NCBI GenBank assembly: GCA_015062485.1
Contig: SUUO01000001.1
Span: 1,691 to 65,690 of the forward strand
Direction: 5' to 3'
Length of the DNA: 64,000 bases
Source of the DNA: Alphaproteobacteria bacterium
GTDB taxonomy: Bacteria; Pseudomonadota; Alphaproteobacteria; Rs-D84
Both the position numbers and the translations under genes were made by a program. A model generated the notes under the pieces. That model searched no databases. It had not been told where the DNA came from and saw only the letters and a program-made list of their open reading frames with translations. The first letter of the stretch is position 1. Each line of letters begins with the position of its first letter. Positions 7,651-51,952 of this stretch are shown one piece after another.

Positions 7651-8829
7651 ATGCCAGGTAAAAATAAAACTATGAAACAATATGACGTAATTATTATTGG
7701 TGCGGGGGCGGCGGGCCTGAGCGCGACGGGGGAACTGGTGACGCGTGGGAAACGTGTGTTGGTTCTGGATATGGGAAACACACCCGCGCGCAAGGTGGCC
7801 GTATCCGGTGGTGGCAAATGCAATATTACAAATATAGCCACCGATGTCACACGATACTTTGGTGAAAATCCAAACTTTGTACGTGGCGCGCTAAGTCGCG
7901 TTGGGCCGACCGACATCCTGCAATGGTGCGACAGGCACAAAATCAAACTGTACGAAAAAGAACCCGGCCGATATTTCTGTGCCGACGGCGCGGGCGTGGT
8001 GGTTGATGCGCTGATTCACGATGCAATGGGGGCGGACATAAAATATAATCACGCGGTGGAATCTGTGACACGGCGCGACGACCAATTTATTGTTGCCGCA
8101 AACGGCACCAAATTTTGTGCAAATTCTGTGATTGTTGCAACGGGCGGGACGTCTTTTGGGACGTTGGGGGTGTCTGACGTGGGGTATAAAATCGCCAAAT
8201 CATTTGGGCATAAAATTGTGCCGGTGCGCCCGGCCCTGTGCGCAATGGCGACGGAAATGTTTGGGACGGATTTTGCGGGAATTTCAATACCGGTCGAAAT
8301 TACGGTGGCCCGTGCGAAAATCCAAGACGATATGTTATTCACACACTTTGGTATCGGCGGACCGGCCGTCTATCGCGCCAGTGTTCGTGATTTATCGAAT
8401 GGCATAACAATCAATCTGTGTCCGGACGTGGATATGTTTGCCACACTTAAAAACGCAAAACAGAAAAACGGAAAACGCAACATATCAAGCATACTGTCCG
8501 AATATTTACCGGTACGTATTGCCAAATATTTTTCAAATAATGACGTGCGAAATATTGCAGATTGGCGCGATTCAGAAATTCGTGCAATTGCCGACCGTGT
8601 TAACAAAACACAAATTCAGTCGTCGGATATAAAATTATATAATACGCAAAGCGCAGAAATCGTTCGCGGTGGCGTATCAACCGAACACATTTCATCCAAG
8701 ACAATGGAATCAAAACTGTGCCCGGGGCTGTTCTTTGCGGGCGAAGTGTTGGATATATCAGGCGACTTGGGGGGATTCAACCTGCACTGGGCGTGGGCCA
8801 GTGGTCGTATCGCCGGCAGAAACGCATAA
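7651..8829 (+). CDS. HI0933/BaiN-like FAD-dependent flavoprotein
   Basis: N-terminal YDVIIIGAGAAGLSA Rossmann motif, an SGGGKCNITN motif, and C-terminal GGFNLHWAWASG. Confidence 0.8.
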   Translation: MPGKNKTMKQYDVIIIGAGAAGLSATGELVTRGKRVLVLDMGNTPARKVAVSGGGKCNITNIATDVTRYFGENPNFVRGALSRVGPTDILQWCDRHKIKLYEKEPGRYFCADGAGVVVDALIHDAMGADIKYNHAVESVTRRDDQFIVAANGTKFCANSVIVATGGTSFGTLGVSDVGYKIAKSFGHKIVPVRPALCAMATEMFGTDFAGISIPVEITVARAKIQDDMLFTHFGIGGPAVYRASVRDLSNGITINLCPDVDMFATLKNAKQKNGKRNISSILSEYLPVRIAKYFSNNDVRNIADWRDSEIRAIADRVNKTQIQSSDIKLYNTQSAEIVRGGVSTEHISSKTMESKLCPGLFFAGEVLDISGDLGGFNLHWAWASGRIAGRNA

Positions 8830-8857: not shown

Positions 8858-8904
8858 TGAGATATGAGACAAGAGATATGTGATATGAAGCACGAATACT
8901 TCGC

Positions 8905-9086
8905 TAAATAAAAGTTTATCGCAGGAAGTACAAACAGAATTTTTTGCAAAAAAAATTCTGTCATCCCGGTGCTTGACACCGGGACCCAGGTCATATTTCC
9001 TTTTTATTTGCTTTCACCTGGATTCCGTGGTCAAGCCACGGAATGACAAAAACGTAAAACGTTTTTATTAAATAAACTTTTATTTA
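8905..9086. repeat. nested palindromic MITE-like element, copy 1
   Basis: Outer inverted repeat TAAATAAAAGTTTAT (8905-8919) / ATAAACTTTTATTTA (9072-9086). Inner arms of about 33 bp lie at 8959-8993 and 9016-9048, each with its own hairpin (CCGGTG-CTTGA-CACCGG; CCGTGG-TCAAG-CCACGG). Confidence 0.6.
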
Positions 9087-9095
9087 TCTAAGTAA

Positions 9096-9124
9096 TTGCG
9101 TAAGGGGAAAGATTTAGTTATAAT
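9096..9124 (+). promoter_or_regulatory. sigma70-type promoter of Cys-rich cassette 1
   Basis: TTGCGT (9096-9101), 17 nt, TATAAT (9119-9124). The same architecture occurs at 25676-25704 and 50473-50501. Confidence 0.7.
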
Positions 9125-9130
9125 TGGTGT

Positions 9131-9334
9131 GTTATGGTGGTTTGCCATAATGGGGTGTGAGAACCCGTGCAACAAGCAACCGTACGCAAATATATTGTTG
9201 TGTGCCGTTGATTATAAAAACTCCTGATCTTTACTGTCAGGGGGGCTGTGAATATATTGAATAAACAGCACAATTCTTGTTGATTGTTCTCAACCTCCTG
9301 ACCACTCGAAAGTTTTCGGTGGTTTTTGTTTTTT
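9131..9334 (+). ncRNA. conserved structured leader / candidate riboregulator, copy 1
   Basis: Begins about 7 nt after the -10 box. Hairpins TTATGG..GCCATAA and GGGT..ACCC. CTCCTGA (9221-9227) or CCTCCTGA (9294-9301) can each pair with TCAGGGG (9237-9243). Terminator ACCACTCGAA..TTCGGTGGT plus a T-run at 9300-9334. The paralogue lies at 50508-50733. Confidence 0.55.
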
Positions 9335-9363
9335 CGCGAAAAACAATGAAAGGAGTTGAACAA

Positions 9364-9801
9364 ATGAAAAAACTTTTAATATTAACCGCGGTTGGCGCAA
9401 TGCTTGCCGCGCCCGCAATGGCGGTACAAAAATGTGTGGCGTTGGATGCGTCGACCACCACGTGTACATCAACATCGACGATGAGTAAAGCGGATTGGTC
9501 CGCCACGTGTACAACGAATGACACCAGTGTCCCGATTAAGGGAATTGCGATGTGTTCAAATCAGGCGGCGGACGCACAATTTGGCACGTCAGATGTGATA
9601 ACAACGGTAAGCGGCTCATCGGATACGACCAATTTAAATTGCTGGTGTAAAATGGTTGAGCCGGCCGTGTCGTCTTGGGTGTTCGTCATCGCGAGCTCGT
9701 CCGCCGGTTTTTGCGCGAACGTCTGTTCGTACCGCTGTTCGCATTACGCCCAGAACTATTCCGCGTTCCGGTCCGCGCTGTTTGGTTCATTGGCAAATTA
9801 A
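9364..9801 (+). CDS. secreted Cys-rich protein, N-domain type
   Basis: AAAGGAG RBS 8 nt upstream. Signal peptide MKKLLILTAVGAMLAAPAMA. Ten Cys in the mature part. Paralogous to 50763-51215 and to the N-half of 51233-51952. Confidence 0.8.
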   Translation: MKKLLILTAVGAMLAAPAMAVQKCVALDASTTTCTSTSTMSKADWSATCTTNDTSVPIKGIAMCSNQAADAQFGTSDVITTVSGSSDTTNLNCWCKMVEPAVSSWVFVIASSSAGFCANVCSYRCSHYAQNYSAFRSALFGSLAN

Positions 9802-9811
9802 GGGGACGCGA

Positions 9812-10084
9812 ATGAAACGAATAATATTTTTGTTAGCGGGCGCGCCGATTGTGGCGTACGCCACCGCGCCGTCAACGTCGTGTCCGGCGGGTTATATCGC
9901 GATTGATGAGCCGCAAATCACAATTGCAACAAGTTGCCCCAGTGGCACAACCGCCATTGGCACGGCGGAATCGTGTTTGGTGTCATCACCGGCAGGCTCG
10001 TGCATAATGTATGCGCCGGTGGGAATGTCGTACACCGACGACACCGGCACGTATGAATTTACCGATGTGTGCCCAATGTCATAA
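9812..10084 (+). CDS. secreted Cys-rich protein, C-domain type (CPAGY...YEFTDVCPMS)
   Basis: Own signal peptide MKRIIFLLAGAPIVAYA. Matches the C-half of 51233-51952 and the C-terminus of 25814-26710. Confidence 0.75.
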   Translation: MKRIIFLLAGAPIVAYATAPSTSCPAGYIAIDEPQITIATSCPSGTTAIGTAESCLVSSPAGSCIMYAPVGMSYTDDTGTYEFTDVCPMS

Positions 10085-25411: not shown

Positions 25412-25454
25412 ATGAGATATGAGACAAGAGATATGTGATATGAAAATACTTCGC

Positions 25455-25659
25455 TAAATAAAAGTTTAAACTAAAGTGCAAATGTGGAAAAATTAAACTT
25501 CTTTTGTCATCCCGTGGCTTGACCACGGGACCCAGGTCATAGAAACATTATTATTTGTGCGCGCTCTGCGCGCATAACCTGGTTTCCGGTGTCAAGCACC
25601 GGAATGACAAAAACGTGAAACGTTTTTGTAAACTAATTACTTCGCTAAACTTTTATTTA
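25455..25659. repeat. nested palindromic MITE-like element, copy 2 (core inverted relative to copy 1)
   Basis: Outer IR TAAATAAAAGTTTA (25455-25468) / TAAACTTTTATTTA (25646-25659). Inner arms at 25505-25539 and 25577-25609. The arm hairpins are swapped relative to copy 1 (CCGTGG..CCACGG on the left, CCGGTG..CACCGG on the right). Confidence 0.6.
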
Positions 25660-25675
25660 TCTATGAATTTCGTGC

Positions 25676-25704: not shown

Positions 25705-25813
25705 ACGTGGCATAGAGACGAAAAACATATGCCGAATCCAATGGGACGTTTTTCCTCGGCATAAATTCGTAATTAAAAATCCCTGATTTCTGCATATTTT
25801 ATCCCCCGTTTTT

Positions 25814-26710
25814 GTGCCGAATCTAAACGTCGGTTTGGTTGCGGCGGTGGCGACGTTCTTGTCATTGAACGCATTTGCAAGCCAGACCGCTTTGCATACC
25901 GGGAATTATACGGTTTTAAGCGCATCTTCGCGCGGTTTGTCGTCTTATTATCAAAATATGCTGGCGACGCATTATGATAAACTGACCAGCGGAACATATG
26001 GTGTGGTGCCTATGTGTGGCTCGGGCAGCGATGGTTATACGCTGTTAATGGGAAGCAGTGCGTATTCATATTGCGTTCTGGCCAAATGGTACGACGACGA
26101 TAACAACACCGGTATCGGCGGCTTTTGTTTTTCCACAGAGGCACTTTGTTGGAAATTTTCAGGAATGATATCATCGGGCGTCAGTGGGAATACAAACAGT
26201 AGCGCCACGTTGAAAAAGGGTTATTTTTTCTCTAATACCAGTTATGCAACATATTTAAATAATACGACAACACAGTCTTATTATCGGCGCAATGTTTCGA
26301 TTGCAAACGATTCATTTTTTACGTGTTTGCAAAATTGTGCTAATGACACGGGCTGGGTATCGTATACACAATCAGACGGTACACCATATGAAAAATGGCA
26401 AAAACAGTATTGTCCCGAATCCACAATAAACGCCAGTACTTGTTCCCCTATAACGACCAGTTCTACGGCTTTTAGTTATCGCTGTCCCGCCGAATACTAT
26501 AATGAACTTGGTAAAATTTCTTGGCCTTCATTAGACTACATCAGTTGTAAGCCGTGTCCAAGTTTACCCAAACGCGATGGCACGACGTGCGCAATCAGTT
26601 CGGGTGCAGGTTTGTCCTCGATAACAGGTTGCGTATTGGCCGGTGGGTGCGAATCATATGACGACACCGGTGATTTTATGTTTGCAGGCAGTTGTTTTTA
26701 CACTAACTAA
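25814..26710 (+). CDS. secreted Cys-rich protein, distant family member
   Basis: GTG start, no clear RBS. Signal-like VGLVAAVATFLSLNAFA. Many Cys and N-x-S/T sites. C-terminus CPAEYY...CESYDDTGDFMFAGSCFYTN resembles the C-domain of the family. Confidence 0.65.
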   Translation: MPNLNVGLVAAVATFLSLNAFASQTALHTGNYTVLSASSRGLSSYYQNMLATHYDKLTSGTYGVVPMCGSGSDGYTLLMGSSAYSYCVLAKWYDDDNNTGIGGFCFSTEALCWKFSGMISSGVSGNTNSSATLKKGYFFSNTSYATYLNNTTTQSYYRRNVSIANDSFFTCLQNCANDTGWVSYTQSDGTPYEKWQKQYCPESTINASTCSPITTSSTAFSYRCPAEYYNELGKISWPSLDYISCKPCPSLPKRDGTTCAISSGAGLSSITGCVLAGGCESYDDTGDFMFAGSCFYTN

Positions 26711-36774: not shown

Positions 36775-36803
36775 AAAATCCCGCCGTCTGGCGGGATTTT
36801 TTA
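36773..36803. terminator. bidirectional terminator (dcd / giant gene)
   Basis: AAAAAATCCCGCC-GTCT-GGCGGGATTTTTT. Confidence 0.8.
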
Positions 36804-39800
36804 ATCAACCGCGTGATACGTTGTTCCGCCAATATTTACATTCAGCGCACCAGATTTATTCCCACTGGCCAGGCTGGCATAACACATATCGCCCGCACTT
36901 GTTTTTACAACCAATGTATGAGACGTACGCTTTGACGAATACAGCGGTATCGATAGCCCAGTACTTAATTTTATATGGGTTATGCCCGCCTCGCAGAACT
37001 GGCCACACAATCCATCAGAGGTCAGATTATACCCACTGTTACACACCCAGGGACAATTATCTGTACCACCGCCAGACCCCGTATAACTGGCATTATCAGG
37101 TGCCAATGTGCACGCCGTGCGGGTTAATTCACCTGCCGCCGACCAGTAGCCTGTGCCAACATCCTGGCAAACATTTTCATACAAATCATCCAGTGTATCA
37201 TAACCCGTGTCCTGTGTTGCGGTACTGCTGGCATTAAAGTACACATTATAGTACCCGCCATCACAAGTTAAATTACTTCTGTTTACCCAGCAAGTCTTGG
37301 TTGTTCCATCAACGCCATACGTGTATGTGGTAAGGCTGTTGTCGGTGTAAGCATCAACATAACACGAATACTGGGCCATTGTTCCATCATCTAATGTTTT
37401 ACTGTTGAACGTCACATTGCACCCCGACGAAACTGTATGGTCACCTGTGGCACCAGTATTCCAATATGAATAGCCCCTTACATTTGCGGTATTATTGCTT
37501 GCCGTTGGGCAACTGATGCACGAGGACTGACCGGTGTATGGCTGGTACGTTGCACCGGTACAGGCTGTACAAGCGGATGCGGTATTTGCGGATGACGTAT
37601 AATAACCCGCCGGGCATTTGGTACACGATGCACTGTTCGAATAATAGCCCGCACCACAATTAACCGTCAATGCGTATGTTGCGGTTGCACTTTTATAAGT
37701 TGATGTTTCGGCACTGGTCACGGTAATTGTGGCCGTTCCGGCCTTGACATAAGTCATCGTGACGGTTGTACCGCTGATTGCGACGGTCGCGACACCGGTT
37801 GCATTGGACGATACGCTTAATGTGCCACCACTGGTATTCGTGCTGACTGTAAACTGTTTGGTCTTTGCACTGTCTGTATAAGACAATGTTCCACTGGCCG
37901 CACTTAGTTTCAAAGTGTTCGTACCCTTGGCGGTTGTGACCGCAACAGTTTTGCTGGACGCTTTATAGTTCGTAGTCGCGGCACAGTTTACCGTAATCGT
38001 CGCACTGCCCGCCGCTTTCCACGTCACGGTCACGGTACCACTGTTTATTGCAACCGTTGCCTTGGACGTGTCACTGGATGATACGGTTGCGGTACCATTC
38101 TCGCTGCAACTGGCGGTAAAGGTTCCAGTAGTTGTTGGATATGTAACCGTAAGACTTGTTTTGCTGACCGTTGTCGTACCATTAATCTTGTTAACCGTCA
38201 CACTGTACGTCTTGGAACCACTTAGGTAATTGTCGTTACCCGCCGCGGTTACGGTAATGGTTGTGCTGCCCGCCTGTTTACCGGTCATCGTGACCGTCGT
38301 ACCACTTACCGAGGCGGTGGCAATGGTGCTGGATGCTGACGACACACTTAATGTACCCTGGGCACCGCTTACCGTAAATGTTCCGGTACCGTTATAATCA
38401 ATCGAGCCACTGGTCGCGCTTAAACTAATCGGGTTTGTACCCTTGGCGGTCGTGACCTTATAGGTGGCGGTTGTCGCATTATACTGGTCACTTTGCGCCG
38501 CGGTTACCGTAATCGTCGCAGTTCCCGCAGATTTCCACGTGACTGTGCCCGTTGTACCACTTAAACTTACCGTTGCAACGCCCGTCGCATTGGATGCGGC
38601 ACTTAGCGTTCCGTTACAAGATCCCTTGGACACGGTAAATGTACCCGTGGTCGTTGGATATGTAATCGTAGCGGTTGTGGGGCTGACACTTATCGAGCAA
38701 GTCCCACGATTAACCGTTAACGCATATGTCTTGGAACCACTGTAATAATTCGCATTACCCGCCGCGGTTACGGTTATCGTTGATGTTCCGTATTTAACCG
38801 GTGTCATCGTAACCGTCGTGCCACTTACCGATGCGGTCGCAACGGATGTTGTGCCAGACGTCACGGAAACAGTACCCTGGGCACCACTTACCGTAAACGT
38901 TCCGGTGCTTGGATATGTTATCGAACCACTGGTCGCACTCAGGCTAATCGGATTCACCGCCTTTTTGGTATACAATGTATATGTTGCACTGGATGCTTTA
39001 TAGTTCGTGGTCGCAGGACAATTTACCGTAATCTTCGTCGTACCATCAGCCGCTTTCCACGTCGTACTTACCTGGCCAGTGCCAACCGTTGCACTTGCAT
39101 ACGTCGACGTATCCAAAGACACAGTCGGTGTAGCACTCTCGCTACAACTTACTGTAAAGCTGCCAGAAGTCGTTGGGTATGTCAGTGTGCCACTGGCCGC
39201 ACCCAAAGTTGTCGTACCATTAATCTTGTTAACCGTCACACTGTACGTCTTGGAACCGCTTAGATAATTGTCGTTACCCGCCGCGGTTACGGTAATGGTT
39301 GTGCTGCCCGCCTGTTTACCGGTCATCGTGACCGTTGTACCACTTACCGAGGCGGTGGCAATGGTGCTGGATGCTGACGACACACTTAATGTACCCTGGG
39401 CACCGCTTACCGTAAATGTTCCGGTACCGTTATAATCAATCGAGCCACTGGTCGCGCTTAAACTAATCGGGTTTGTACCCTTGGCGGTCGTGACCTTATA
39501 GGTGGCGGTTGTCGCATTATACTGGTCACTTTGCGCCGCGGTTACCGTAATCGTCGCAGTTCCCGCAGATTTCCACGTGACTGTGCCCGTTGTACCACTT
39601 AAACTTACCGTTGCAACGCCCGTCGCATTGGATGCGGCACTTAGCGTTCCGTTACAAGATCCCTTGGACACGGTAAATGTACCCGTGGTCGTTGGATATG
39701 TAATCGTAGCGGTTGTGGGGCTGACACTTATCGAGCAAGTCCCACGATTAACCGTTAACGCATATGTCTTGGAACCACTGTAATAATTCGCATTACCCGC

Positions 39801-42488
39801 CGCGGTTACGGTTATCGTTGATGTTCCGTATTTAACCGGTGTCATCGTAACCGTCGTGCCACTTACCGATGCGGTCGCAACGGATGTTGTGCCAGACGTC
39901 ACGGAAACAGTACCCTGGGCACCACTTACCGTAAACGTTCCGGTGCTTGGATATGTTATCGAACCACTGGTCGCACTCAGGCTAATCGGATTCACCGCCT
40001 TTTTGGTATACAATGTATATGTTGCACTGGATGCTTTATAGTTCGTGGTCGCAGGACAATTTACCGTAATCTTCGTCGTACCATCAGCCGCTTTCCACGT
40101 CGTACTTACCTGGCCAGTGCCAACCGTTGCACTTGCATACGTCGACGTATCCAAAGACACAGTCGGTGTAGCACTCTCGCTACAACTTACTGTAAAGCTG
40201 CCAGAAGTCGTTGGGTATGTCAGTGTGCCACTGGCCGCACCCAAAGTTGTCGTACCATTAATCTTGTTAACCGTCACACTGTACGTCTTGGAACCGCTTA
40301 GATAATTGTCGTTACCCGCCGCGGTTACGGTAATGGTTGTGCTGCCCGCCTGTTTACCGGTCATCGTGACCGTTGTACCACTTACCGAGGCGGTGGCAAT
40401 GGTGCTGGATGCTGACGATACGCTTAATGTACCCTGGGCACCGCTTACCGTAAATGTTCCAGTACCGTTATAATTAATCGAGCCACTGGTCGCACTTAAA
40501 CTAATCGGGTTTGCCGCCTTATTCACCGTACAGGTAAACGAGCCAGTTTTAGTTGTATAGTTCGTTGCGGTTACCTGATAATAAATCGTATATGTACCCG
40601 CATCCGTTTTTGATATTGCACTGGTTGATGTATAACTGCCGCTGGCGGTGCCGTATTTTACGGTCGCACCACTGCTTGGTGTCGTTACACTAACCGTGCC
40701 GCAACTTTGCGCGCTACCGTTATATGTCAGCGTCTTGTTAGATGCACTGGCACTGATTGTTGCGTTTTCAATCGTACAACCAAATGAACCTGTTTGTGTC
40801 ACATAGTTTGGATGTGTGACTTGGAAATATATAGTTTTGCTGTCTGCAACATTAGTAACAGTTGGCGCAGATGTCAGATTATAAGTACCCGCTGTTGTGC
40901 CATATTTAATCGTTGCGCCCGATGGCCCATCTTCATCCAGCAGACCTGTACAGGTCATAGCGGTGCCATCATAAACCCTTGAATGGTCAACCCCCAATTC
41001 TTCCCAGTCTGCCTTGGTCACCGTACAACTGAACGATCCGGTTTTATCCGTATAATCGGTTGCGGATATTTTGTAATAAATGGTCTTGCTGTCCGCAACA
41101 TTGGTAATTGTTGGGGCGGTGCTGGTGTATGTGCCGGTGCTGCTGGTGGCGTATGTGATGGTTGCGCCCGACGGGGATGATACCGATATACCACCGTTAC
41201 AAGTCAATGCGGTGCCATCATAAACCTTGGTTTGGGCGGTTGGTCCCGTCACCGACATACACGTCCATTGGGCATACAAGGTGCGGTCCCCCGCAATATT
41301 CCAGGCACGCGCCGACGCCCCCGCCGCGGTATAATATTGTGTACCACCCGATGCCGCACTGTACCAACCATTGAATTTACAGCCGGTCTTGGTTGGTTTG
41401 GTCGTGCTGATTGTCGGCATCGCGACACCATATGTTGCGGTTACGTCCGCCGTTTGTCCGCCCGAACCACCGTTGGCATCAAATGATACAGTATAAGTGT
41501 TTGCAACCCAACAAGCGTACAAAGCACTTGTACGTGTTGTAGTTAATGACGATGTTCTGTAACCAGTCGCGCTGATATAACGGGTGGTAGATGATGTACA
41601 GCCCGACGTCGATGCCGCATATCCATCAAATGTATATCCCGTTTTTGTTGGAATTGTAATCGGATTTGTCGTGGTCGTCATAGCCGTCGCGTGCGCCGAG
41701 TCCAGATATACATTAACCCCATATCGCGTATAAATCGCCGTTGTGCCGGCCGTTGTAGCACTGTTGTTATTTAATGTGATTGTGAAATCATCCCCGGTTT
41801 TTTGCGCATAATACGTCACGGATGATGCGGTACTGGTTACCGTGACCGATGTTGTTGTGGTGCTGGGGCACGACGCCAATGTGGTTGACGACGATGACCA
41901 ACCGCCACAATATTTATAATATCCACTGTACAAACCATTTGTTACACCGTGGGAACTGCTTGTCTGGTCGGTTATCGTCGGTAATGCGCACGACGTGCCA
42001 TAATAGCATTGTGTTGATACACTGGTTGTGCTGGTCGCAGATGCGGTTGTTCCCGTAACAGCATTGGTTAGCGATACCGTACCATTACCGCTGTTTTTGC
42101 TTAATGTGACGGTACGATAACACTGGGTGCGGGCGGTCGACCCCGTAGACTTGGTCGTCCAATAGTTATTTGCACTGGTGGTTGTGCTACCGGTATCACA
42201 GTCAAGACGCGCATTTGCGTTACTGGTTGCAGAGCCGCCGGGGCAATAATAGCCAACCTCGCACAGGGTACAGGCATTACCAACCTGAGCGGTTGTGTTT
42301 GGGGTGCCATCCACGGTCATATAATACCCCGCGTTACAGGATGTATACATCTTGATATCGTTACATGTATACCCCGCAGATAAGGCGGAGGACACCGACA
42401 TCAACAGAACAAGTGTAAAAGAGAAAAAAAAGTGGTGAATTTTTCGCGCAATTTTATTACTTAAAAAATTCCCGATATTCTGTTGCAT
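36801..42488 (-). CDS. giant secreted repeat protein (adhesin-like), 1,895 aa
   Basis: GGAGG RBS 6 nt before the ATG at 42488. Signal peptide ...LLMSVSSALSA. N-terminal Cys-rich CxxGYY modules. Listeria-Bacteroides-type repeats (YTVSFDANGGSG...GWY...LYAQW). Three YDG/MBG-like repeats. About 11 Ig-like (Big_2-like) domains. C-terminal Cys-rich CPAGYY region. Confidence 0.9.
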   Translation of the reverse strand: MQQNIGNFLSNKIARKIHHFFFSFTLVLLMSVSSALSAGYTCNDIKMYTSCNAGYYMTVDGTPNTTAQVGNACTLCEVGYYCPGGSATSNANARLDCDTGSTTTSANNYWTTKSTGSTARTQCYRTVTLSKNSGNGTVSLTNAVTGTTASATSTTSVSTQCYYGTSCALPTITDQTSSSHGVTNGLYSGYYKYCGGWSSSSTTLASCPSTTTTSVTVTSTASSVTYYAQKTGDDFTITLNNNSATTAGTTAIYTRYGVNVYLDSAHATAMTTTTNPITIPTKTGYTFDGYAASTSGCTSSTTRYISATGYRTSSLTTTRTSALYACWVANTYTVSFDANGGSGGQTADVTATYGVAMPTISTTKPTKTGCKFNGWYSAASGGTQYYTAAGASARAWNIAGDRTLYAQWTCMSVTGPTAQTKVYDGTALTCNGGISVSSPSGATITYATSSTGTYTSTAPTITNVADSKTIYYKISATDYTDKTGSFSCTVTKADWEELGVDHSRVYDGTAMTCTGLLDEDGPSGATIKYGTTAGTYNLTSAPTVTNVADSKTIYFQVTHPNYVTQTGSFGCTIENATISASASNKTLTYNGSAQSCGTVSVTTPSSGATVKYGTASGSYTSTSAISKTDAGTYTIYYQVTATNYTTKTGSFTCTVNKAANPISLSATSGSINYNGTGTFTVSGAQGTLSVSSASSTIATASVSGTTVTMTGKQAGSTTITVTAAGNDNYLSGSKTYSVTVNKINGTTTLGAASGTLTYPTTSGSFTVSCSESATPTVSLDTSTYASATVGTGQVSTTWKAADGTTKITVNCPATTNYKASSATYTLYTKKAVNPISLSATSGSITYPSTGTFTVSGAQGTVSVTSGTTSVATASVSGTTVTMTPVKYGTSTITVTAAGNANYYSGSKTYALTVNRGTCSISVSPTTATITYPTTTGTFTVSKGSCNGTLSAASNATGVATVSLSGTTGTVTWKSAGTATITVTAAQSDQYNATTATYKVTTAKGTNPISLSATSGSIDYNGTGTFTVSGAQGTLSVSSASSTIATASVSGTTVTMTGKQAGSTTITVTAAGNDNYLSGSKTYSVTVNKINGTTTLGAASGTLTYPTTSGSFTVSCSESATPTVSLDTSTYASATVGTGQVSTTWKAADGTTKITVNCPATTNYKASSATYTLYTKKAVNPISLSATSGSITYPSTGTFTVSGAQGTVSVTSGTTSVATASVSGTTVTMTPVKYGTSTITVTAAGNANYYSGSKTYALTVNRGTCSISVSPTTATITYPTTTGTFTVSKGSCNGTLSAASNATGVATVSLSGTTGTVTWKSAGTATITVTAAQSDQYNATTATYKVTTAKGTNPISLSATSGSIDYNGTGTFTVSGAQGTLSVSSASSTIATASVSGTTVTMTGKQAGSTTITVTAAGNDNYLSGSKTYSVTVNKINGTTTVSKTSLTVTYPTTTGTFTASCSENGTATVSSSDTSKATVAINSGTVTVTWKAAGSATITVNCAATTNYKASSKTVAVTTAKGTNTLKLSAASGTLSYTDSAKTKQFTVSTNTSGGTLSVSSNATGVATVAISGTTVTMTYVKAGTATITVTSAETSTYKSATATYALTVNCGAGYYSNSASCTKCPAGYYTSSANTASACTACTGATYQPYTGQSSCISCPTASNNTANVRGYSYWNTGATGDHTVSSGCNVTFNSKTLDDGTMAQYSCYVDAYTDNSLTTYTYGVDGTTKTCWVNRSNLTCDGGYYNVYFNASSTATQDTGYDTLDDLYENVCQDVGTGYWSAAGELTRTACTLAPDNASYTGSGGGTDNCPWVCNSGYNLTSDGLCGQFCEAGITHIKLSTGLSIPLYSSKRTSHTLVVKTSAGDMCYASLASGNKSGALNVNIGGTTYHAVD
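38171..40513 (-). repeat. 1,038-bp tandem duplication (about 2.26 copies) inside the giant gene
   Basis: Identical shadow ORFs lie at 38464/39502, 38818/39856 and 39007/40045, all offset by 1038. The unit encodes four Ig-like domains. The few differences I found are mostly synonymous (one changes an amino acid). Confidence 0.9.
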
Positions 42489-42765
42489 CTGCACCCTCCA
42501 TACTTTCCTTTCGTTCGGATAAAAAATAACCGCCACAGATATTGGCGGTCGGGGTGTTAGAAAAATCATAAAAGAGAATGACCCCGCCGGTTTTCGGGGC
42601 AAGGCCCCTGTGGTATAACCGACGGCACCCCGACAAACCGGGGATTTACACAAAAAAAGACGCATTCCGCGCCATTTTCTATGTGCGGATCAGTGTGCAT
42701 TTTCTCACACCGCTCTTCTATGGGCTTTTCTAAGGCCCCGAACCCACATCCCTGTGAATTCATTG
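42489..42765 (-). promoter_or_regulatory. long GC-rich structured 5' leader of the giant gene with internal intrinsic terminator
   Basis: Hairpin ACCGCCA-ATATCTG-TGGCGGT plus TATTTTTT (42520-42550, minus strand), about 30 nt upstream of the ATG. Upstream of it lie several GC-rich helices (CCCCGGTTT...AAACCGGCGGGG, GGGGCCTTGCCCC). Confidence 0.5.
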
Positions 42766-50416: not shown

Positions 50417-50472
50417 TACGATATGAGATATATAATATAAATACTTAACCAAACTTTTATTTATCATTGCGA

Positions 50473-50501
50473 TTGCGCAAATGAAAACAATCGGTTATAA
50501 T
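50473..50501 (+). promoter_or_regulatory. sigma70-type promoter of Cys-rich cassette 3
   Basis: TTGCGC, 17 nt, TATAAT. Confidence 0.7.
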
Positions 50502-50507
50502 ACATGT

Positions 50508-50733
50508 GTTATGGCGGCTTGCCATAATGGGGTGTCAGAACCCGTACAATACGCGTTTGGAAACGAAATCCGGCGCGCCGATGGCGTGTTTTTTCGTATA
50601 TGAATCCAGACGAAAATCAAAAAACTCCTGATGTATTACGTGTCAGGAGGGTTGCGAATATATTGAATAAGCACACAATTCGTATTGATTGTTCTGAACC
50701 TCCTGACCACTCGAATTTATTCGGTGGTTTTTT
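50508..50733 (+). ncRNA. conserved structured leader / candidate riboregulator, copy 2
   Basis: Same 5' block GTGTTATGGCGGCTTGCCATAATGGGGTGTCAGAACCCGT as copy 1. GTCAGGAGG (50642-50650) is complementary to both CTCCTGA (50625-50631) and CCTCCTGAC (50699-50707). Terminator at 50705-50733. Confidence 0.55.
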
Positions 50734-50762
50734 CAAACATGAAAAAAAGGGAGATTTAGGTT

Positions 50763-51232: not shown

Positions 51233-51952
51233 ATGAAAAAAATAAGCATTTTATTATGTATTTTGGCAATGCCGGCATTTGGTGCGGCAAAACGGTGTGT
51301 AAAACTGGACCCGGAAACAACCACATGCACGCCAACAAACCCAACAAATGGCAATGTTGACTGGACGGCAACGTGCACGACCAAAGACAATGAAACAATT
51401 CCAATTCTGGGGATTGCGGCATGCGGGATGGACGCTGCATCGGATGTTACCGAAATAGCCGGTTGGAAGACGACTGATAGTATGTATGTATATAATAGTG
51501 ATGAAGAGTCTACAACTGATATACACATTGCCGTTTGTAGGTGTCGGATAATATACCCCGTCGTATCTGCGTGGGTAGCAATATCATTTGGCCAAGACCC
51601 CACATATATTCCAGAACCATTGGGATATGGTCCAAACGTATGCCTGTACAGATGTTCGTACGCGTGCGCAAATCGTGGTGGTACGTTTTATGAGGCCCTG
51701 CTTACATCGGCGGCAAAATCACAAAGCGACACCGAATGCCCCGCCGGGTATATTGGTATAGATGAACCAACCTTCAAAATAGAAGAAACGTGCACCAATG
51801 AGACATATGTTAACTACACCCCACTGGGGGACGCAAATTCATGTTTGGATGACAATCCAGGCATAGACTGTGTATTGTATGGTGAAAAAAACACATCGTA
51901 CAATGACGGCAGTGGCGCATATGAATTTAATTCAATGTGTGTAATGGAATAA
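51233..51952 (+). CDS. secreted Cys-rich protein, fused N-domain plus C-domain
   Basis: Signal peptide MKKISILLCILAMPAFG. The N-half aligns to 9364-9801 (KRCVKLDPETTTCT...DWTATCTT...). The C-half aligns to 9812-10084 (CPAGYIGIDEP...YEFNSMCVME). Confidence 0.8.
   Translation: MKKISILLCILAMPAFGAAKRCVKLDPETTTCTPTNPTNGNVDWTATCTTKDNETIPILGIAACGMDAASDVTEIAGWKTTDSMYVYNSDEESTTDIHIAVCRCRIIYPVVSAWVAISFGQDPTYIPEPLGYGPNVCLYRCSYACANRGGTFYEALLTSAAKSQSDTECPAGYIGIDEPTFKIEETCTNETYVNYTPLGDANSCLDDNPGIDCVLYGEKNTSYNDGSGAYEFNSMCVME

Follow-up and report, generated by a model that had tools for sequence, protein, structure and literature searches.

Riboswitches of the cyclic di-GMP-I (GEMM) class, including the variants that sense cyclic GMP-AMP, control regulons with many copies of the element per genome, and the classical trp, his and pyr attenuators work by a four-segment logic of 1:2, 2:3 and 3:4 pairings. 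ROSE and fourU, RNA thermometers of Alphaproteobacteria, are Rfam families of about 100 nt, and LhrC represents tandem clusters of small RNAs (sRNAs); CU-rich motifs of the anti-Shine-Dalgarno (anti-SD) type are the seeds of LhrC as well as of cuckoo and CcsR. The RNAs cuckoo, ar14 and CcsR are multi-copy anti-SD sRNAs with CCUCCUCCC loops (PMC4615179, PMC8034643). Here we describe a leader RNA that is present at 9129-9327 (copy 1) and 50506-50733 (copy 2) of a 64,000-nt stretch, in the following called the window, of contig SUUO01000001.1 from an Alphaproteobacteria bacterium of the Rs-D84 lineage. The leader is a real promoter-proximal, non-coding, structured RNA. We see an even chance that it acts in cis as a bistable 5' leader, an orphan riboswitch-like attenuator in which a CCUCC tail captures or releases the SD sequence of the downstream gene.

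Both copies are preceded by promoter hexamers that were read from the sequence, TTGCGT (9096-9101) and TATAAT (9119-9124) for copy 1 and TTGCGC (50473-50478) and TATAAT (50496-50501) for copy 2, with a spacer of 17 nt in each case. A recurring promoter and leader at these two loci had been proposed in a sequence-only reading of the window, and hexamers, spacers and shared blocks are present as it described them. The 5' block GTGTTATGGYGGYTTGCCATAATGGGGTGTSAGAACCCGT (9129-9168 and 50506-50545) shows 3 differences in 40 nt, or 92.5% identity, instead of the 4 in about 44 nt counted before, and the 3' block (9216-9327 and 50622-50732), shared as stated over about 110 nt, has 22 differences at 80% identity and not 15 to 20. 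The stretch between the blocks is 54% identical, and each block motif occurs twice in 64 kb versus an expectation of 0.00. The downstream proteins are indeed barely alignable, with 26% amino-acid identity (43% nucleotide identity of the coding sequences). Between the two window copies, the open reading frames (ORFs) that cross the leader differ in frame, as had been noted, and also in length, a 1-nt indel shifting the frame; no leader ORF is conserved, and neither is a putative mini-ORF after segment S3.

What the earlier reading missed is that the two blocks pair with each other and that the window holds a third copy at 42763-42525 on the reverse strand. GGGGUGUSAGAAC of the 5' block and GUUCUSAACCUCC of the 3' block are the two strands of one long-range closing helix, and the one G/C change that each block carries is compensatory, G9159-C9291 in copy 1 becoming C50536-G50696 in copy 2. 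The transcripts 9131-9336 and 50508-50736 fold alike, with z = -5.4 and z = -5.25, respectively. Across the family the leader is 170-250 nt long. It begins 4-5 nt downstream of a -10 box of the sigma70 type, and its terminal hairpin and U-run end about 30 nt upstream of the SD. The order of its parts is P1, the closing helix P2a-P2b-P3, a junction with the arms Pv, P4 and P5, and then T, P8 and the SD. Transcription of copy 1 would start at about 9129-9131, and the parts of the three window copies are located as follows.

9096-9124, + strand: sigma70-type promoter of copy 1, by sequence reading
9129-9327, + strand: leader RNA, copy 1
9131-9151, + strand: P1, 5'-terminal hairpin GUUAUGGUG / UGCCAUAAU; 9 of 9 pairs vary, 8 on both sides
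9152-9164, + strand: S1 (GGGG, 5' strand of P2a) and 5' strand of P2b, UGAGAAC; paired with 9286-9297 in the minimum free energy (MFE) fold
9170-9176, + strand: 5' strand of P3, CAACAAG; partner 9276-9282
9177-9215, + strand: Pv, a hairpin of variable length, then an A-rich linker; length unequal between copies
9221-9245, + strand: hairpin P4, made of S2 CUCCUGA (9221-9227), a loop and S3 UCAGGGGGG (9237-9245)
9246-9268, + strand: P5, stem CUGU/ACAG around the conserved 15-nt loop GAAUAUAUUGAAUAA (9250-9264)
9271-9286, + strand: P6, alternative hairpin of CAAU (9271-9274) with AUUG (9283-9286)
9286-9301, + strand: 3' strand of P2b, GUUCUCA (9286-9292), A9293 and the S4 tail CCUCCUGA (9294-9301)
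9300-9334, + strand: T, intrinsic-terminator-like hairpin GACCAC-UCGAA / UUCG-GUGGUU with U-run UUUUUGUUUUUU
9326-9346, + strand: P8, terminator U-run UUGUUUUUU with A-run GAAAAACAA directly 5' of the SD
9352-9801, + strand: SD GGAG (9352-9355), start codon (9364) and gene for a 145-aa secreted Cys-rich protein
50506-50733, + strand: leader RNA, copy 2; covariance-model score 160.7 bits
50508-50528, 50529-50532, 50625-50631 and 50643-50650, + strand: P1, S1, S2 and S3 of copy 2
50656-50670, 50699-50706 and 50705-50733, + strand: P5 loop, S4, and T with U-run of copy 2
50728-50748, 50750-50753 and 50763, + strand: P8, SD and ATG of copy 2
42763-42525, - strand: third, divergent copy; covariance-model score 26.9 bits, E about 1e-6
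Within 42763-42525, - strand, by sequence reading: S2 CCCCG, S3 UCGGGGUG, S4 CACCCCGA, P2b UUAGAAAA/UUUUCUAA, and terminator GACCGCC..GGCGGUU followed by Us

Enterousia belongs to the uncultured order Rs-D84, with genomes that are mostly below 1 Mb and lack the tricarboxylic acid cycle and respiration (PMC12306168). Near-identical metagenome contigs and one metagenome-assembled genome (MAG) at NCBI encode the window proteins as well; there the leader is identical or differs at few positions. A protein search with the 239-aa paralogue downstream of copy 2 alone returned 2 relatives only. A profile built from all paralogues was used to search for downstream proteins and found 140 homologues, all in MAGs labelled 'Alphaproteobacteria bacterium'; Pfam gave no domains for these secreted Cys-rich proteins. 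Scanning the GTDB representative genomes yielded 78 loci in Candidatus Enterousia and close relatives, which come from the guts of sheep, deer, chicken and humans and have many paralogues in each genome. At about 70 of the 78 loci an nhmmer profile of the two window copies placed the leader, its 3' end lying about 30 nt upstream of the start codon. Alignment of 73 unique leaders (set A5) provided a covariance model, R1, of 178 positions with 83 hits in 549 kb. Its 75 hits with E <1e-20 form the genome set (A7), the loci of which had been chosen by the downstream protein, and 87 model hits form the metagenome set (A8), which stems from a scan of at least 120 metagenome stretches chosen by an RNA pattern confined to the region from S3 to the P5 loop. 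Altogether the model found at least about 170 further copies in Candidatus Enterousia and gut metagenomes, with at least 15 in one MAG and 3 in the window; so far as seen, the family is confined to gut Alphaproteobacteria of Candidatus Enterousia / Rs-D84.

As evidenced by both sets, the fold is maintained by covariation. RNAalifold on the 73 leaders proposes 40 pairs, 26 of them with double-sided changes. In the genome set 98.0% of the cells are standard-paired, versus 75.7% in shuffles and 35-50% with slid partners, 28 of the 40 pairs show double changes, and the covariation score of 0.615 (shuffled: 0.186) was reached by none of 500 shuffles, with slid controls at 0.10 or below. The corresponding values for the metagenome set are 97.2% paired, double changes in 34 of the 40 pairs and a score of 0.713 versus 0.196, again reached by 0 of 500 shuffles. 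P1, P2b, P3, P4 and P5 all covary in the genome set. Up to 5-6 pair types per position are seen in P1 and P3, pair 7-21 of P1 being UA in 28, GC in 14, AU in 13, CG in 12 and GU in 6 cases; the variation of P1 is replicated in the metagenome set, and the sequence of P3 is almost free, at four to five pair types per position in this alignment. Double changes are found in 5 of the 7 pairs of P2b and in all modelled pairs of P3 (6/6) and P5 (3/3), P4 is 92-96% paired and likewise has double changes, and in Pv the base pairs 52-131 and 56-127 covary. A model-free scan by mutual information with average product correction (MI-APC) puts the same pairs on top, with those of P3 ranked first. Note that several G.U pairs are conserved in the genome set (GU in 63 cases at 3-25, in 68 at 11-17 and in 72 at 27-260), which places the constraint at the level of RNA with the polarity of the gene.

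The leader thus has a conserved, structured domain with covariation, as riboswitch aptamers do, and the homologues outside the genome and the covariation that the sequence-only reading had asked for both exist. The loop of P5 is nearly invariant at GAAUAU...GAAUAA, and the MI-APC scan brought up no tertiary partner for it. We considered TATATT in this loop as an internal -10 box and rejected it, as its variants TATCAA, TATATC and TATCAC break the -10 rules.

Membership in a described RNA family was taken as a score at or above the family gathering threshold in Rfam 15 (4227 models). At this threshold the whole window contains 3 tRNAs only. The region 9000-9450, searched at E up to 10, gave RNA-OUT as its best match with 19.9 bits versus a threshold of 41 (E = 0.32), and ten whole homologous loci gave no match at E up to 0.1. 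The earlier statement that the element matches no known riboswitch class therefore holds for Rfam 15; a curated RNA family was discarded on the same grounds, and a leader peptide or small ORF because the frames are not conserved. In the literature on Enterousia and Rs-D84 we found no work on RNA motifs. With at least about 170 copies, two separately gathered sets, more than 30 covarying pairs and no entry in Rfam 15, the leader represents a new RNA family.

One strand of the hairpin P4 has a second potential partner. S3, UCAGGAGG, is complementary to S2, CUCCUGA, in the local P4 helix and to the S4 tail CCUCCUGA in a long-range helix, P7; in the DNA of copy 1 these are CTCCTGA at 9221-9227, TCAGGGG at 9237-9243 and CCTCCTGA at 9294-9301. 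The two partners of TCAGGGG had been recognized before, and coordinated changes in all three segments now bear them out. P7 is 99.3% paired in the genome set, with compositions of UA38/GC35, CG38/UA34, AU38/UA35 and GC61/UA12 and a covariation score of 0.469 versus 0.155 shuffled (slid controls at 0.008 or below), and 99.4% paired in the metagenome set. MI-APC links column 177 to columns 144 and 258, and S2, S3 and S4 change together in at least 6 sequence variants, given here in the order S2 / S3 / S4.

CUCCUGA / UCAGGAGG / CCUCCUGA
CUCCAAC / GUUGGAGG / CCUCCAAC
AUCCAAC / GUUGGAGU / ACUCCAAC
CUCCUGU / GCAGGAGG / CCUCCUGC
UCCCGAC / GUCGGGAAG / CUUCCCGAC (divergent homologue)
CCCCG / UCGGGGUG / CACCCCGA (divergent; third window copy, 42763-42525)

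In the metagenome set the complementarity of S4 to S3 is more faithful than that of S2. P7 is incompatible with P2a, a 3-bp GGGG:CUC pairing. The hairpin P6 has 97.3% of its cells paired and varies from CAAU/AUUG to CUAU/AUAG; its pair 233-249 (AU52/UA23) was also recovered by MI-APC, and since its loop is the 3' strand of P3, P6 and P3 are mutually exclusive.

Each of the 74 leaders with enough upstream sequence has a -35/-10 pair whose end lies 4-5 nt upstream of model position 1; the box at -10 is TATAAT in 40 and the spacer 17 nt in 50 of them. At the 3' end, the stem of T (CCAC(C)../..GGUGG, 7 modelled pairs) is kept with some double changes in both sets, and a U-run of at least four follows in 74/75 leaders of the genome set and 82/85 of the metagenome set. 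The terminator-like hairpin and T-run described about 30 nt before the ribosome-binding site in copy 1, CCACTCGAA/TTCGGTGG with its T-run at 9302-9334, is present as stated. As a G+C-rich hairpin directly followed by a U-run, T is predicted to be an intrinsic (Rho-independent) terminator; a consensus terminator scanner missed it in the window because of a bulge. P8, with a mean z of -3.5 and a G-C pair in 68/72 leaders, has the compensatory variants UUUUGUUUU/AAAACAAAA, UUUUUUCAUU/AAUGAAAAAA and UUUUCUUU/AAAGAAAA. In 41 of 74 MFE folds of the full untranslated region the SD is paired with S4, closing a three-way junction around T and P8. The SD flanks go with the leader type, CAGGAG being found in 18/39 UGA-type and GGAGGUU in 15/22 AAC-type leaders, and matched S4:SD duplexes have a mean of -9.5 kcal/mol versus -8.7 when permuted (0/500 permutations reach the observed value) and -5.1 with S4 shuffled.

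Essentially all copies of the genome set lie on the strand of the gene, about 30 nt from its SD. In copy 1 this gene encodes the Cys-rich protein, with the signal-peptide-like N-terminus MKKLLILTAVGAMLAAPAMA, that had been named as lying downstream. This assignment is correct for copy 1 and fails as a specificity: in the metagenome set about 40 downstream genes, of many families, have signal peptides and about 30 do not, many of the latter encoding small XRE-like helix-turn-helix (HTH) proteins, an identity that Pfam confirms for examples from the genome loci. The leader is not specific to Cys-rich secreted genes and serves diverse secreted proteins and XRE regulators, and this gene context points to no candidate ligand. 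Genes of the XRE type with a leader copy of their own are seen at locus L042 (673-845, - strand) and locus L064 (5598-5776), and such units are sometimes divergent from a unit of leader and secreted-protein gene; pairs of leaders lie side by side at L075 (2530-2681, - strand, and 2788-2960, + strand) and L079 (2551-2699, - strand, and 2806-2967, + strand). That XRE-type genes repeatedly carry the leader suggests that these regulators belong to the same regulon.

In the mechanism that we propose, the switch would have its hub in S4, which mimics the ribosomal anti-SD sequence and could pair with S1 (P2a), S3 (P7) or the SD. S2 would hold S3 in the ground state, and S4 would be held only weakly by the GGGG of S1, so that S4 could capture the SD; the S4:SD pairing would then close the three-way junction around T and P8 and turn translation off. 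If the junction were remodelled into the form with P6 and P7, S3 would take S4, and the freed SD would allow translation. As T lies upstream of the SD, expression would also depend on read-through, and a discrete small RNA would be released. The effector that tips the balance could be a metabolite, a second messenger, a protein, temperature or the ribosome. On this model the CCUCC tail would more plausibly act by freeing or capturing the SD than by antitermination.

Such a leader would resemble the GEMM-type regulons in its multi-helix aptamer-like fold, its covariation and a putative expression platform of terminator and SD-complementary segment, as well as in its many copies per genome, occasionally in tandem, ahead of surface, secreted and regulatory genes. 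Unlike these, it has no match to GEMM or any other Rfam riboswitch in the stretches scanned, no classical antiterminator over the terminator, a promoter in every unit including the tandem ones, and a distribution limited to one order of reduced-genome bacteria. With the trp, his and pyr attenuators it would share a chain of exclusive pairings (S2:S3 with S4:SD versus S3:S4) made from duplicated strands (S2 resembling S4, and S3 the SD region) next to a predicted intrinsic terminator upstream of a gene; it differs in that no leader-peptide ORF is conserved, the competing helices would gate the SD and not the terminator stem, and a large junction domain precedes the switch. ROSE and fourU likewise are structured 5' regions repeated before paralogous genes in one genome for which SD sequestration is proposed, but the present leader is 170-250 nt long, has a four-way junction and a terminator, carries neither a ROSE signature nor an Rfam match, and would capture its SD by a distant CCUCC tail, not inside a local hairpin. 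Finally, several copies, some in tandem, each with its own promoter, terminator and CU-rich SD-complementary motifs, recall cuckoo, CcsR and LhrC, and the host is alphaproteobacterial as for cuckoo/ar14/CcsR. The latter RNAs, however, comprise about 70-90 nt in two hairpins, carry the motif in loops and are not placed as leaders, whereas the leader lacks CCUCCUCCC, has its CCUCC segments in stems or the tail and lies about 30 nt upstream of an SD. By the defining features of GEMM-type riboswitches, four-segment attenuators and cuckoo/CcsR sRNAs, the leader belongs to none of the three.

A number of observations weigh against the proposed switch. We infer the start, the termination and the switching of the leader from sequence. 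P7 ends where T begins and competes only for the bottom 2-3 A-U/G.U pairs of T, leaving stem and U-run in place; the sequence-only reading had the alternative pairing act on the terminator, yet neither state removes more than these pairs and no classical, RNA-only antiterminator is visible. We also considered that the loop of P1, GGUGGUUU, might pair with the 5' arm of T as an antiterminator, and dropped the idea, as this sequence occurs in copy 1 only and is not conserved. The covariation between S4 and SD is weak, its type-by-type energy table is not cleanly diagonal, and CCUCC is complementary to any SD. In constrained folding the ground state is favored over the form with P6 and P7 by a mean of 9.5 kcal/mol, and it is the MFE structure in 48/74 sequences, so that the alternative state could be a folding intermediate only. 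The covarying cells go back to a limited number of evolutionary events in the paralogues; for P7 there may have been 6-9 and for P6 about 2. Of the copies in the metagenome set, 17/87 have no ORF within 110 nt (about 10-20% of copies), some of them with inserted repeats or with genes overlooked by the simple SD rule. On the metagenome contig L110 (Ga0073906_1009298, 155-999) four units stand in tandem (155-323, 411-581, 619-785 and 824-999). All four have promoter-like hexamers and a terminator of their own, and the first three have no ORF behind them; the leader can therefore exist as a stand-alone sRNA-like gene. One copy, that of L087, lacks the U-run.

These points lead to other explanations. 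The element might be an autonomous multi-copy sRNA gene whose terminated RNA of about 170-230 nt acts in trans, for instance by its CUCC/CCUCC anti-SD motifs or its conserved P5 loop, or by sponging up a protein, while the downstream genes are co-transcribed by read-through; we regard both this reading and such modes of action as unlikely, though they have the strongest claim to attention after the cis-acting switch. A promoter and a hairpin with U-run in every unit, terminal hairpins at the 5' and 3' ends as is typical of stable sRNAs, the tandem units and the other copies without ORF, the presence of at least 15 copies in a small genome, and CU-rich motifs like the seeds of cuckoo/CcsR and LhrC would all fit it. 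Against it, essentially all protein-selected copies share the strand of the gene and stop about 30 nt short of its SD and start codon, and P8, through compensatory pairing of the U-run with the A-run that abuts the SD, couples the leader to the translation start. In addition, pairing in the ground state takes up both CU-rich motifs, the hypervariable P2b and P3 of the paralogues leave the P5 loop as the only shared extended seed, and several cases without ORF are accounted for by inserted repeats or genes missed by the SD rule. It is less probable still that the leader is a constitutive structural 5' cassette which, by a strong promoter and a compact fold, stabilizes the mRNA and fixes the context of initiation with no signal-dependent switching. 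Stabilization would come from the 5' hairpin and the covering of AU-rich stretches, and the alternative pairings would be co-transcriptional folding intermediates, an account we hold to be equally improbable. The clear energetic preference for the ground state (mean 9.5 kcal/mol), a terminator core that no alternative structure overlaps, the great diversity of downstream genes, as for a generic expression module, and the pairing of otherwise single-stranded U- and A-runs in P8 are in its favor, but a stabilizer has no need of a conserved 15-nt loop, a four-way junction or a strict second partner for S3. A conserved U-run terminator before a gene is costly unless used, and the greater fidelity of S4 than of S2 to S3 is hard to explain for a transient intermediate.

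As a sub-case of cis regulation, the leader may be the recognition element for a trans-acting protein such as an antiterminator, a NusG-like factor or a translational repressor, which in place of a small molecule would govern read-through of T or access to the SD. To this we give only a slim chance. In its favor, we could draw no antiterminator made of RNA alone, a protein might bind at the conserved P5 loop and the junction, and small XRE-type HTH genes repeatedly carry or adjoin the leader; against it, no candidate RNA-binding regulator was identified, XRE proteins bind DNA, not RNA, and the observations do not separate a protein from a metabolite as effector. A feature at the level of DNA, be it an operator palindrome TTATGGC N5 GCCATAA (+5 to +23), a gene-conversion tract, a miniature inverted-repeat transposable element (MITE) or a recent duplication, has a negligible probability. 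P1 is an inverted repeat just 3' of the -10 box, MITE-like repeats adjoin copy 1 and the downstream genes are paralogous; against this stand helices that are hypervariable and yet paired, unlike a protein site or homology tract, conserved G.U pairs that would be A.C mismatches on the opposite strand, compensatory pairs 130-220 nt apart, an orientation that is always the same relative to promoter and gene, and leader blocks of 80-92% identity ahead of proteins of 26%. DNA-level explanations are effectively excluded by this covariation pattern. A mobile repeat of MITE type or of the repetitive extragenic palindromic type was also rejected, given that all copies start at the promoter and point to the gene and that the hypervariable helices show compensation.

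Going beyond the cis-acting SD switch itself, one may speculate, with more doubt than confidence, that the leader is a new riboswitch class or signal-sensing RNA that reads one global cue, such as a second messenger or a metabolite derived from the host or a partner, and gates the repertoire of surface proteins, secreted proteins and XRE regulators of Enterousia. If so, it would constitute an RNA-based master regulon with dozens of copies in a genome of less than 1 Mb that has few transcription factors left, would operate by an unusual exchange of strands among three partners, with an anti-SD segment as its hub, and its signal would reveal what Enterousia monitor. To our knowledge almost nothing is known about gene regulation in this uncultured, genome-reduced lineage from the guts of ruminants, chickens, horses and humans. 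By extrapolation, leader copies could make up 0.5-1% of a genome of about 0.9 Mb, a share that argues for an important function, and the downstream secreted and surface proteins and XRE regulators are the likeliest mediators of contact with host or partner. The covariation-backed exchange of S2, S3, S4 and SD is suited to studies of RNA switching; were the element an sRNA instead, it would be among the most highly reiterated bacterial sRNA genes known.

Repeats adjoin the leader on its upstream side, one of them directly 5' of the -35 box of copy 1.

9074-9088, + strand: AT-rich motif AAACTTTTATTTATC, directly 5' of the copy 1 -35 box and also the right end of a MITE-like repeat (8903-9088)

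Further copies of the motif lie at 25647 and 50451 and, in inverted orientation, at 8903 and 25453 (7 matches versus 0.44 expected), and a similar one lies upstream of about 20 of 74 leaders. The MITE-like repeat of about 190-210 nt is present at 8903-9088 and 25453-25661, directly 5' of two promoters; it ends in the inverted repeats GCTAAATAAAAGTTT ... AAACTTTTATTTATC, and gtcatcccggtgcttgacaccgggac and ttccgtggtcaagccacggaa form two hairpins inside it. Insertions of similar 'GTCATCC...GGATC' hairpins are seen 3' of some metagenome leaders, for example at L101. A conserved ATGAGATATGAGACAAGAGATATGTGATATGAA (repeat family D12) at 8858-8889, 25414-25444 and 50417-50448 comes after the terminator of the upstream gene at all three loci with the AAACTTTTATTTATC promoter context. 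The segment 25661-25830, with a similar promoter and AAACTTTTATTTATC, was considered as a further leader locus and rejected, as the covariance model does not match it and the leader is of a different type. This second, unrelated type lies at 25706-25845 ahead of other paralogues of the secreted Cys-rich family, and also 5' of genes in L011, L043, L044, L046, L049, L058, L059, L066 and L072. This type is built from a hairpin such as (A/G)UGCCGAAUCUAAACGGUCNUUUGGAUUCGGC in duplicate; it has no match to model R1 and none in Rfam (window, gathering threshold), and its window copy folds with z = -1.9 only.

Copies of the leader are also found on the viral-classified contigs L086, L087 and L088. In L087 (IMGVR_UViG_3300024303_004416) the copy at 8441-8613, which lacks the U-run, lies a few kb past phage tail genes (tape-measure-like and others) and ahead of an ABC exporter gene, and in L086 the copy precedes a gene for a 316-aa secreted protein. 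Among the window genes, the 239-aa protein downstream of copy 2 (51233-51952) is a fusion-like homologue of two adjacent genes behind copy 1, that of the 145-aa protein (9364-9801), which corresponds to the N-terminal domain, and that of a 90-aa protein (about 9812-10084), which corresponds to the C-terminal domain; the C-terminal motif ..YxDxxGxYxFxxxC is found again in a 298-aa protein at 25814-26710. Downstream of the third copy lies a giant ORF (36801-42665, - strand) of about 1900-1950 aa, with 519-nt tandem repeats of 61-100% identity at about 37680-40550 and weak Pfam hints (CopC-like, ephrin-receptor-like Cys-rich). Because the third copy sits upstream there, the listed ATG at 42665 probably falls within the leader, and translation of the giant repeat protein probably begins near 42501 or 42487.

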